From Escherichia coli (GTDB lineage Bacteria > Pseudomonadota > Gammaproteobacteria > Enterobacterales > Enterobacteriaceae), in assembly GCF_003018255.1 (NCBI RefSeq), contig NZ_CP027440.1: 64,000 nt of DNA; one strand, 5' to 3'. The notes under the pieces were generated by a model. That model did not search any database. It worked only from the letters and a program-made list of their open reading frames with translations, and had not been told where the DNA came from. Positions 45,856-48,263 of this stretch are shown here, piece by piece. The first letter of the stretch is position 1. Each line of letters begins with the position of its first letter. A program made the position numbers and the translations under genes.

Positions 45856-46047
45856 ATGCGTTATACGGATAGCAGAAAACTCACGCCTGAAACGGATGCC
45901 AATCACAAGACCGCTTCCCCGCAGCCCATCCGGCGAATTACCAGCCAGACACTGTTAGGTCCGGATGGCAAACTGATTATCGATCATGACGGGCAAGAAT
46001 ATCTGCTCCGTAAAACTCAGGCTGGCAAGCTGCTGTTGACCAAGTAA
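45856..46047 (+). CDS. ydiE: HemP/HmuP-like small protein, 63 aa
   Basis: Track ORF begins at a TTG at 45829; the ATG at 45856 gives MRYTDSRKL. Confidence 0.75.
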
Positions 46048-46050
46048 CCT

Positions 46051-47487
46051 TTAACTCGAGCAGCTGACTTCCAGCCGTTTACCCCAGTCAGGTGGACGAC
46101 TGGCGTAGTCATCATCTCTGTCGCTGAAAGGATTTCGCAACGCCTCATGCAGGCGGTGCAATTCCGTCATATCACCCTTTTCTGCCGCTTCAATCGCCCG
46201 TTGCGCCAACCAGTTGCGCAACACCAGAGCTGGGTTAACGCTTTGCATCAGTTGCTGACGCTCAATATCGCTAACCTCGTCTTGTTGCAAACGCCTCCGA
46301 TAACGGGCAAACCAGTCATCAAATGCCGCACGATCAATAAACTCATCACGTAGCGGTGACGCCGCGCTGTGCTGCTCGGTCAGACTCAGCATGCGAAATG
46401 TGCGGGTATAATCGCTGCGCTCTCGCGCCATCAGACTGAATAATTCATTTAGTAGCGCGTTATCCTCTTTTTGCTCCGTCATGAAGCCCAGTTTCTGCCG
46501 CATCCGTTGTCCATAATGCGTCAACAAAACCTGCTGATAGCTGTCCAGGGCCTCATTCAGGGCATCAACGGCGACAAATGGCGACAATGTCTGCGCCAGA
46601 CGCTGTAAATTCCACAACGCGACGGCAGGTTGATTATCAAAGCTGTAACGCCCTTGGTGATCCGAGTGATTACAAATAAAACCGGGTTCGTAATCATCAA
46701 GAAAACCAAACGGCCCGTAATCAAGCGTCAGCCCCAGCAGCGACATGTTGTCGGTATTCATCACCCCATGAGCAAAGCCGACCGTCTGCCATTGGGCAAT
46801 TAACGATGCGGTACGTGCGACAACATCGCTAAACCAGAGACGGTATTTGTCCTCATCATCTTCAAGATGAGACCAGTAATGACGAATGGCAAAGTCAGCC
46901 AACTGACGAACCTTTTCCGGCTCGCGGCGATAGTAAAAATGTTCGAAATGACCAAAGCGCAGATGACTTAGTGCCACACGCATCAGCATCGCGCCTGGCT
47001 CCACCGTTTCCCGATACACTGGCGAATCGCTGGTGACGATACTTAACGCGCGGGTCGTCGGAATGCCCAGATAATGCATCGCCTCACTGGCGAGACTTTC
47101 TCGTATCGTCGAACGTAAAACCGCCCGTCCATCACCCATTCGCGAATAAGGCGTCAGGCCAGCACCTTTCAGATGCCAGTCCATTGTAGTGCCATCAGCA
47201 AGCCGTTGTTCGCCGAGTAAAATGCCGCGCCCATCACCCAGTTGGCCCGCCCAGACGCCGAACTGATGACCACTGTAAACCTGCGCCAGTGGTGACATAC
47301 CAGGCAGTAGGGTTTCGCCGCCCCAGACACCTGCGCCATTTTTAAACAGCGACGATGGAATACTCAGCGTGTTAGCGAGTTCGGTATTATGCCAAATCAG
47401 CCGGGCATTATTTAAAGGCGTAGGGGAAAGTGCTGTATAGGTTTCTGGCAATTCATCGCGCCAGCGGGTAACAAAAGACAGGGTCAT
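46051..47487 (-). CDS. selO: SelO-family protein nucleotidyltransferase (AMPylase/UMPylase), 478 aa
   Basis: Pseudokinase-fold SelO/YdiU sequence; synteny. Confidence 0.9.
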
Positions 47488-47549
47488 AGATCCTCCTATT
47501 TGATAGTGTAGACGGTTACTCTCGTCTTAAACACCAGCAAACAGGAGGG

Positions 47550-48263
47550 TTATCGCTGAACCAACGTCGTTATCTGATTTACAGGAACGGCAGGCCACAG
47601 GCATCCCTGGAGAGCATGGAAATCAAAGGGGGTAATCTGTGCCATTATTTCTGGCGTATCAATGCCCCCCGCGATGATGCAATTGCAACATGGGGAAATT
47701 TGAGCCTGGATCGCACGAATAAACGGTTCGAAGGAGCGATGCGTGATTTGTTGCTGAATAAAACTTTTATCCAGCATGACGCGGGTGAAAAGACCATCAA
47801 AAACCGCTTTCATTGTGCTATTGCCTGCGCCCAAATTACCTAACACAAGGGGATACATTTGCGATAAGGACAAAAGATCGCGATTATCTTTTCCTTCATC
47901 GAGATGCGGGTAATTCTCATTAATCAACAGTTCAATAAACGGATATTTTAATAGTTCGCCTGCGTAATTATCCCTGTCTAATAATAATGTAGCCACTTGT
48001 GGCGTTAAATTAAGCCAGGCAAAGAGTTTATGTTGAATAAAAAAGTGTTGGCATGATTTTAGTAATTCCAACTGCTCTGAAAATAATTGCCAATGTTGCT
48101 CCTCGGTAAGTTGCGCTATAACCCGACTCGTCGGGATACGAACCGTACCATCTTCACTGGAGAAATGGGTAATTAACTCAACGCCGACAAGGTCTTGCTG
48201 GTTATCTCTTATCGGCAGGAAATAGCAATCAGAATGATAAAGATTCTCCAAAAAAATCTTCAT
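47550..48263 (-). CDS. ydiV: Degenerate EAL-domain protein, anti-FlhD4C2 factor, 237 aa
   Basis: EAL-like fold recognisable; AT-rich codon usage; synteny. Confidence 0.9.
   Translation of the reverse strand: MKIFLENLYHSDCYFLPIRDNQQDLVGVELITHFSSEDGTVRIPTSRVIAQLTEEQHWQLFSEQLELLKSCQHFFIQHKLFAWLNLTPQVATLLLDRDNYAGELLKYPFIELLINENYPHLDEGKDNRDLLSLSQMYPLVLGNLGAGNSTMKAVFDGLFTRVMLDKSFIQQQITHRSFEPFIRAIQAQISPCCNCIIAGGIDTPEIMAQITPFDFHALQGCLWPAVPVNQITTLVQR

Follow-up and report, generated by a model that had tools for sequence, protein, structure and literature searches.

The level of the flagellar anti-activator YdiV decides whether flagella are built in Salmonella and pathogenic Escherichia coli, and this level is set post-transcriptionally by the nutrient state without a described mechanism. 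According to the passage of PMC7157525 that cites Wada 2012, YdiV of E. coli K-12 is limited by “attenuated translation.” How such control might be exerted, and how far the genes beside ydiV share in it, is the question raised by the ydiE-selO-ydiV locus of E. coli. The locus was analyzed in a 64,000-nucleotide stretch of contig NZ_CP027440.1 (assembly GCF_003018255.1), hereafter the window, in which the three genes lie between positions 45856 and 48263. The best explanation overall, and one that we consider probable, is that of a conserved locus in which ydiV is gated by a coupled upstream open reading frame (uORF) and the selO start is hidden in the structure of the ydiV-selO spacer. The structures and functions of all three proteins have been published, and the locus itself holds nothing new; the new elements are the ydiV-selO synteny, the contrast of ydiV in GC content and evolutionary rate, the 31-codon uORF, and the nucleotide-level constraint on the spacer and on selO codons 2 to 5.

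A first-pass annotation, made from the letters of the window, had proposed the 246 bp upstream of ydiV as a site of nutritional control. This region contains a uORF whose TGA stop overlaps the ydiV ATG as ATGA (48263 to 48260), and its anatomy was compared in 72 distinct ydiV upstream sequences across the Enterobacteriaceae. First, the uORF frame is open over 31 codons in 63 of the 72 sequences (88%), compared with 6/72 and 3/72 (4 to 8%) for the other two frames and ∼11% predicted from base composition alone. Second, both ends are fixed, with an ATG exactly at codon −31 in 59 sequences and the ATGA overlap with the ydiV start in 71. Third, 55 of 60 loci have a GGA-type Shine-Dalgarno (SD)-like motif 4 to 16 nt ahead of the uORF ATG, and the columns of the ribosome-binding-site consensus, AAGGAAAAAATGAAA, are 80 to 90% conserved. 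All eight E. coli sequences compared carry an intact uORF. The encoded peptides, in contrast, cannot be aligned between genera, the ratio of nonsynonymous to synonymous polymorphism (pN/pS) is 0.95 among close pairs, there is no third-position periodicity, and the second codon position is the most variable. Selection therefore appears to act on the frame, length, and ends of the uORF and not on its peptide, a pattern that reads as the signature of a cis-acting translated leader.

The uORF is unannotated in the RefSeq records of E. coli JNE23-011 and K-12, its product is represented solely by unnamed gene calls, on 29 contigs, and a literature search found no paper treating ydiV together with a uORF. 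The comparative case for an unreported, translationally coupled ydiV uORF is reasonably strong. Nutritional control within the 246-bp region is plausible and is strengthened by the conserved uORF inside it; that the control itself is exerted at this site we infer. A uORF of ∼30 codons also overlaps the ydiV start in Salmonella, with the stop overlap TAATG rather than ATGA, and since Salmonella ydiV transcription starts at −230 (bioRxiv 10.1101/2020.05.29.124750), its leader includes the uORF.

The reading frame might be accidental and without a role, with YdiV controlled purely by transcription (through its promoter, H-NS, CadC, SoxS, or FliZ, as in Salmonella) and by proteolysis. Neutral evolution of the peptide, an unexceptional leader fold, and the lack of annotation beyond unnamed gene calls would all fit an accidental frame, and transcription factors explain much of the regulation in Salmonella (PMC9728131; bioRxiv 10.1101/2020.05.29.124750). 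However, accident accounts neither for the excess of open frames in the uORF frame over expectation and over the other frames nor for a start, SD-like motif, length, and stop overlap that stay fixed while the sequence between them diverges past recognition. Transcription factors also leave unexplained the translational block of K-12, as relayed in PMC7157525. We regard an accidental ORF as unlikely. A functional small protein acting in trans, e.g., a hydrophobic membrane peptide, would match the conserved length of 31 codons, the conserved N-terminal Met-Lys, and the hydrophobic composition (MKLILLKS..., MKVTPSVIVM...). Such a protein is nevertheless highly improbable given the near-neutral pN/pS, the variability of the second codon position, and peptides that defy alignment between genera, and the conserved C-terminal residues coincide with nucleotides of the ydiV SD.

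If the uORF is instead a coupled leader, ydiV translation would be gated as follows. Ribosomes would load at the GGA-type ribosome-binding site of the uORF and run through the segment predicted to pair with the ydiV SD, ending at the UGA of the AUGA on the ydiV start. By translating the uORF they would open this structure, terminate on the ydiV start, and re-initiate there, i.e., the two ORFs would be translationally coupled. Control of uORF initiation or elongation, by nutrient state and possibly by CsrA at GGA motifs, would then set the YdiV level. Predicted folds are consistent with an occluded ydiV start: over 56 leaders, the mean unpaired probability of the ydiV SD was 0.18, versus 0.32 with shuffled upstream sequence, and it was below the control in 49 of the 56.

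GGA motifs number 3.84 per leader versus 2.08 expected, a modest enrichment, with conserved positions in the uORF ribosome-binding site and at codon 19. CsrA reportedly controls STM1344, the Salmonella ydiV gene, and idlP-iraD is a CsrA-controlled, translationally coupled leader ORF of enterobacteria. The ydiV leader resembles idlP-iraD in several respects: the uORF is short, it has a separate ribosome-binding site that contains GGA, its stop lies at or on the main start, and its peptide sequence is unimportant. The ydiV leader differs in that coupling and CsrA control, features of the idlP-iraD case, are proposed for it, and its GGA enrichment is modest. From the enrichment and these precedents, CsrA is possibly an input at the ydiV leader, as a lead and not a result.

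Upstream of the uORF, the window carries a perfect −10 hexamer within a motif, TTTATAATCAGGATAA, that is common to Escherichia, Citrobacter, and Salmonella, and a terminator-like hairpin of nlpC, polymorphic in two strains, separates nlpC from the ydiV control region. Published statements call the E. coli and Salmonella ydiV promoters “completely different”; E. coli lacks the distal promoter region to which CadC and H-NS bind in Salmonella, and its spacer is shorter (246 bp versus 323 bp) (PMC9728131). Unusual conservation of the 246-bp spacer within E. coli was considered and rejected, as its nucleotide diversity among seven strains (pi of 0.0105) is merely below the synonymous diversity of 0.04 to 0.07. 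Its 100% identity between K-12 and the window is likewise unremarkable, since zero differences in one pair is within expectation (ydiV has 19 differences).

The second part of our explanation concerns the gene downstream. Loci were collected in a scan with a YdiV alignment of one genome per species, and the best 80 of the 93 places with a YdiV relative were compared. All 80 belong to the Enterobacteriaceae (Escherichia, Salmonella, Citrobacter, Enterobacter, Lelliottia, Kosakonia, Kluyvera, Phytobacter, Trabulsiella, Yokenella, Buttiauxella, and others), and every one has the order nlpC-ydiV-selO, with selO immediately after ydiV and on the same strand. By contrast, a convergent ydiE adjoins selO in just 32 of the 78 loci, and a strong Fur box accompanies it in nearly all of these. 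What is conserved is therefore the ydiV-selO pair, to which ydiE is a facultative neighbor, and the grouping of all three genes in the first-pass annotation holds for the invariant pair but not for ydiE. Mean identity to the window protein across the loci was 49% for YdiV, 80% for SelO, and 82% for NlpC, and ydiV has evolved ∼3 times faster than selO. Across the Enterobacteriaceae, ydiV and selO form a fixed gene pair. The pairing is not reciprocal: YdiV is limited to this family (as judged from the best 80 of 93 places), and SelO is far more widespread.

Published work backs a functional relationship among the three genes, as had been suggested from the sequence: all three are tied to Fur or iron, and two are tied to FlhDC. 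YdiU (SelO) UMPylates Fur (PMC9239237) and FlhDC (PMC9239255). YdiV sequesters FlhD and, with SlyD, inactivates Fur (PMC7515728), and in a 2026 preprint, ydiV and ydiU are assigned to the same operon and YdiV is reported to take off the UMP that YdiU attaches (bioRxiv 10.64898/2026.02.09.704795). YdiV is a catalytically degenerate EAL protein with FlhD as a binding partner; according to the published work, it also acts on Fur and may be an eraser of UMP marks.

The YdiV protein of the window has a weak EAL match (PF00563; 34.5 bits, cutoff of 31.3), is identical to K-12 RflP at 229 of 237 residues, and matches the structures 3TLQ and 4ES4, the latter a YdiV-FlhD complex (E = 1e-157). Its score with the NCBIfam equivalog for PdeH, a canonical EAL phosphodiesterase, is 49.2 bits versus a cutoff of 190. 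The two proteins share a fold family, and E29 (EAL/ELI motif), N85, E116, and Q219 align. However, YdiV has GNLGAG where PdeH has DDFGTG, Met in place of the catalytic Lys, and GGID in place of EGVE, and in this alignment it lacks the full set of catalytic and metal residues of EAL cyclic di-GMP phosphodiesterases. YdiV was previously reported to have lost 8 of 10 catalytic residues and neither to bind nor to hydrolyze cyclic di-GMP (PMC3510510). The de-UMPylase preprint calls Glu29 conserved, metal binding, and catalytic (bioRxiv 10.64898/2026.02.09.704795). The preprint also names Glu116 as catalytic and conserved, and both E29 and E116 are present in the window YdiV. Of 74 distinct homologues, all retain E111 and 73 retain E116, whereas position 29 is Glu in only 50 (13 Asp, 7 Lys, 2 Ser, and 1 Asn). 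The invariant pairing with selO, the restriction of ydiV to one family and its ∼3-fold-faster evolution, and the nonconservation of E29 all bear on the proposed eraser function.

SelO has a PF02696 match of 515 bits and an NCBIfam equivalog match (NF040880) of 1028.2 (cutoff of 900), is identical to K-12 SelO at 468 of 478 residues, and is matched over residues 1 to 478 by the structures 6III, 6K20, and 9JYM. Alignment to K-12 indicates that K107, D246, N247, D256, and C476 are all kept, in the motifs HLK107GAG, HGVMNTD246N247, LD256YG, and VSC476SS, the last with a C-terminal Cys in place of Sec; D256A is an inactive mutant (bioRxiv 10.1101/692707). SelO of the window is, as judged by these residues, catalytically intact, and by family it is a pseudokinase-fold AMPylase/UMPylase. 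None of 29 polymorphic positions falls on its active-site residues. Relaxed or positive selection on either gene within E. coli was rejected, as pN/pS values of 0.22 for selO and 0.15 for ydiV (0.10 for nlpC) indicate purifying selection.

The spacer between the two genes, 62 nt in E. coli, is 61 nt long in 57 of 79 loci, and the motifs GTGTTTAA, CTACACT, CAGGAGG, and ATGACCCTGTCTTTT are near-invariant across loci. In Salmonella, the YdiU-YdiV pair (STM1345-STM1344) has the same orientation and the same spacer motifs within 64 nt, although its YdiV is only ∼52% identical to that of the window. The E. coli spacer folds at −35 kcal/mol (z = −4.9), the anti-SD CCCUCCU pairs with the selO SD, and five stem substitutions within Escherichia all keep pairing as G-U. 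Constraint extends into selO, where codon entropy is 0.17 bits over codons 2 to 5 versus 1.40 bits over codons 7 to 80 (76 sequences). The near-zero synonymous change in codons 2 to 5 implies that the translation-initiation region of selO is constrained at the nucleotide level, and codons 1 to 5 form the 3′ arm of a consensus hairpin, CAGG:CCUG. We infer that the ribosome-binding site of selO is masked by secondary structure formed by the fixed-length spacer together with selO codons 1 to 5.

Across the family, the invariant motifs of the spacer are kept as sequence and not as pairs. CTACACT fits the sigma-S extended −10 element (CTAYRCT). This likeness, together with the conservation of the motifs as sequence, makes an internal, stress-responsive selO promoter possible, through which SelO output could be uncoupled from ydiV transcription. 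Transcriptome sequencing of Salmonella indicates that acid induces ydiV but not ydiU (PMC9728131), which would fit such a promoter. A PhoP box reading of TGTTTA-N5-NNNTNA in the spacer was rejected on account of an unconserved second half-site and of atypical spacing relative to the −10-like motif.

Alternatively, ydiV and selO could be an obligate operon of an eraser-writer pair, the spacer hairpin serving only to couple selO to ydiV translation without an internal promoter. The fixed adjacency and spacer length would be expected of such an operon, the anti-SD lies directly after the ydiV stop, and no intrinsic terminator was found between the genes: the hairpin is followed by GAUCUAUGACC with no U-tract, and a terminator scan found no minus-strand site in 47488 to 47549. 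The preprint's “same operon” and the de-UMPylase activity that it reports point in the same direction (bioRxiv 10.64898/2026.02.09.704795). An obligate operon would not account for induction of ydiV without ydiU by acid (PMC9728131) or for invariant GTGTTTAA and CTACACT motifs that are conserved as sequence rather than as pairs. An obligate eraser-writer pair also sits poorly with a Glu at position 29 in only 50 of the 74 homologues and with YdiV at only 93 places (the best 80 all in the Enterobacteriaceae), SelO being far more widespread. We consider an obligate operon possible but doubtful.

The preprint's operon statement is one of several points that weigh against the explanation we favor, i.e., a ydiV gene gated by a coupled uORF and followed by a selO start hidden in spacer structure. 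(i) The fold of the whole ydiV leader is no better than that of shuffled sequences (z = −0.8 and −1.1). (ii) About 12% of the species have no intact uORF, which is frameshifted in Escherichia albertii and some Kluyvera and interrupted by in-frame stops in others; the frameshifted uORF of E. albertii and Kluyvera (two loci) ends before the ydiV start without overlap, and these loci are natural variants. (iii) The A after the ydiV ATG is also dictated by residue 2 of YdiV (K, I, or N), and the ATGA overlap is therefore partly a by-product. (iv) The CsrA idea and the sigma-S-like reading of CTACACT rest on resemblance to consensus sequences, and no good −35 element is present near CTACACT. (v) The long spacer hairpin shows no family-wide covariation, with 65.1% of cells paired versus 64.8% in shuffles, and RNAalifold keeps only five pairs, in the small CAGG:CCUG hairpin around the selO start codon. 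The long hairpin was therefore rejected as a family-wide RNA structure and is valid for Escherichia only. A search of 45650 to 48650 against Rfam 15 gave no gathering-level match, and the matches at relaxed thresholds were to eukaryotic families (E ≥ 0.2).

The genes were identified from the ORF listing, Pfam, NCBIfam, and the RefSeq annotations of JNE23-011 and K-12, all of which agree (Table 1). The first-pass coordinates of the three genes and of the 246-bp spacer were borne out by the ORFs, profiles, and RefSeq annotation, as were its calls of a HemP-like YdiE, a SelO nucleotidyltransferase, and a degenerate-EAL YdiV by the profiles, K-12 identity, and structures. The stretch from 45500 to 48700 is 100% identical to the chromosome of JNE23-011. 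K-12 (b1705 to b1707; ydiE, selO/ydiU, and rflP/ydiV) has the same gene order, lengths, and spacers, with protein identities of 98% for YdiE, 98% for SelO, and 97% for YdiV. The differences from K-12 are allelic only (24 nt in selO, 19 in ydiV, and 2 in the 62-nt spacer) and touch no catalytic residue. The stretch was found in 5,423 of 5,426 complete E. coli genomes. At an identity threshold of 99%, only 4 of the 5,423 genomes match this strain across the 3.2-kb stretch (45500 to 48700), while 4,347 do so across the 246-bp spacer alone; in this strain, a widespread control region is thus combined with selO and ydiV alleles that are rare. Strain EH2252 carries an IS1 transposase within the ydiE-ydiV stretch.

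Table 1. Features of the ydiE-selO-ydiV locus, in window coordinates
Feature	Position	Strand	Description
ydiE (“hemP”)	45856-46047	+	63 aa; HemP family, PF10636
selO (ydiU)	46051-47487	-	478 aa; pseudokinase-fold AMPylase/UMPylase, PF02696
ydiV (rflP)	47550-48263	-	237 aa; degenerate EAL protein, anti-FlhD4C2 factor
Spacer between ydiV and nlpC stop codon	48264-48509		246 bp exactly
uORF MKVTPSVIVMSYGLIPFSRILKNILREGRLP	48260-48355	-	31 codons plus stop; in-frame upstream ATG at 48364 would give 34 codons
GGAA SD-like motif	48359-48362	-	4 to 7 nt upstream of 31-codon uORF start
ydiV SD region GAGAGGGA	48272-48279	-	Predicted pairing with UCCCUUUU inside uORF (minimum free energy folds)
Perfect −10 hexamer TATAAT within TTTATAATCAGGATAA	48406-48411	-	Candidate ydiV promoter, sequence reading
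nlpC terminator-like hairpin AUGGACGGCGAU...AUCGCCGUCCAU then UUU	48468-48498	-	Sequence reading
ydiV-selO spacer	47488-47549	-	62 nt
Anti-SD CCCUCCU	Directly after ydiV stop	-	In ydiV-selO spacer
GTGTTTAA	47534-47527	-	ydiV-selO spacer motif
CTACACT	47511-47505	-	ydiV-selO spacer motif
selO SD AGGAGG	47497-47492	-	In ydiV-selO spacer
selO codons 1 to 5 (AUG ACC CUG UCU UUU)	47473-47487	-	Almost without synonymous variation across genera
Fur box GATAATAAGAATCATTGTT	45815-45833	+	Overlaps ydiE promoter-like site 45813-45842
Convergent ydiE/selO gene ends, stop codons 3 nt apart	46020-46076		Within interrupted 13-bp hairpin

The three genes had also been described as lying in an AT-rich stretch. 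This description fails for the span as a whole, whose GC content of 0.493 matches the window mean of 0.4945 and falls at the 48th percentile among 2,408-bp windows. The GC contents of selO (0.527) and ydiE (0.510) are the same as those of the flanking genes (aroH, 0.530; nlpC, 0.497; btuD, 0.551). Only ydiV (GC of 0.423 and third-position GC of 0.429, in the lowest 7% of 714-bp windows) and two promoter spacers, the 246 bp upstream of ydiV (0.382) and the aroH-ydiE spacer (0.366), are AT rich. The GC content of ydiV is below that of selO in 75 of 75 species-level loci of other Enterobacteriaceae, by 5 to 17 points (mean, 10.5), and low GC content is therefore a stable property of the ydiV gene. 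The picture implied by an AT-rich stretch, in which ydiE, selO, and ydiV are one horizontally acquired regulatory island, would be served by the composition of ydiV and its upstream spacer, by the consistent difference from selO, and by the binding of H-NS to the Salmonella ydiV promoter (PMC9728131). However, the span and two of its three genes are ordinary in composition, the nlpC-ydiV-selO order is fixed across 80 species of many genera without mobility genes, ydiE stands beside selO in fewer than half of the loci (32/78), and the stretch is core to E. coli (5,423 of 5,426 genomes). An island spanning all three genes is ruled out by composition and synteny, and a common horizontal origin has next to nothing to recommend it.

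YdiE matches PF10636 at 55.9 bits (cutoff of 25) and NCBIfam PRK10183/NF007559 at 135.5 (cutoff of 77), is identical to K-12 YdiE at 62 of 63 residues, and matches the crystal structure 4YNX (E. coli YdiE). No hemin uptake genes adjoin ydiE in the annotated neighborhood. Its Fur box scores 15/19 against the consensus; within the 64-kb window, such a score or better occurs at just two places, versus 0.21 expected from shuffles, and 29 of 32 other species also have a Fur box of 15/19 or better ahead of ydiE. In addition, ydiE belongs to the core E. coli Fur regulon (PMC10164565), and its link to Fur has further support in the literature (PMC3212961). Fur control, from the predicted box and the literature, is the only role-related feature of ydiE that is supported, and ydiE may be viewed as a small HemP-family gene under Fur repression, with the Fur box on its promoter. 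At 20667 to 20691, ∼260 nt away from the rydB small RNA (20948 to 21008), is a second strong Fur box cluster (matches of 16/19 and 15/19, on both strands), presumably the suf operon promoter. A Fur-like site within the first ydiV codons (48230 to 48248; 14/19) was rejected as being at chance level (1.5 expected per window). The site is still of note in that ydiV mRNA increases 3- to 23-fold when iron is limiting, “by unknown mechanisms” (PMC7515728).

The gap between the convergent ends of ydiE and selO is 2 to 8 nt in 23 of the 32 other species carrying ydiE, and the two transcripts must therefore overlap or end inside each other's coding ends. A bidirectional terminator at this point was rejected, as the hairpin is present but not significant when both strands are folded (z = −1.4 and −0.07).

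Elsewhere in the window, Rfam gathering-level matches (26613 to 26720, 20948 to 21008, 51397 to 51555, 55396 to 55520, and 2674 to 2955) correspond to RprA, rydB, STnc540, the Phe leader, and two tRNAs with an overlapping HPnc0260 antisense match. STnc540 lies directly upstream of btuC. In E. coli strain A24 (positions 8535 to 9714 of the A24 locus), a phage integrase and a hypothetical gene occur just past btuC, where other strains carry ihfA.

For the biology of YdiV, the consequence would be that an unreported, family-wide leader ORF gates YdiV through its translation and not its peptide, thereby supplying both the missing mechanism of nutritional control and the “attenuated translation” of K-12 and, with the spacer, setting the YdiV:SelO ratio. 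The arguments for and against this full proposal seem to us evenly balanced. If it is true, the ratio between YdiV, as the proposed eraser of protein UMPylation, and SelO, as its writer, would be determined jointly by the uORF and the sequence-frozen ydiV-selO spacer.

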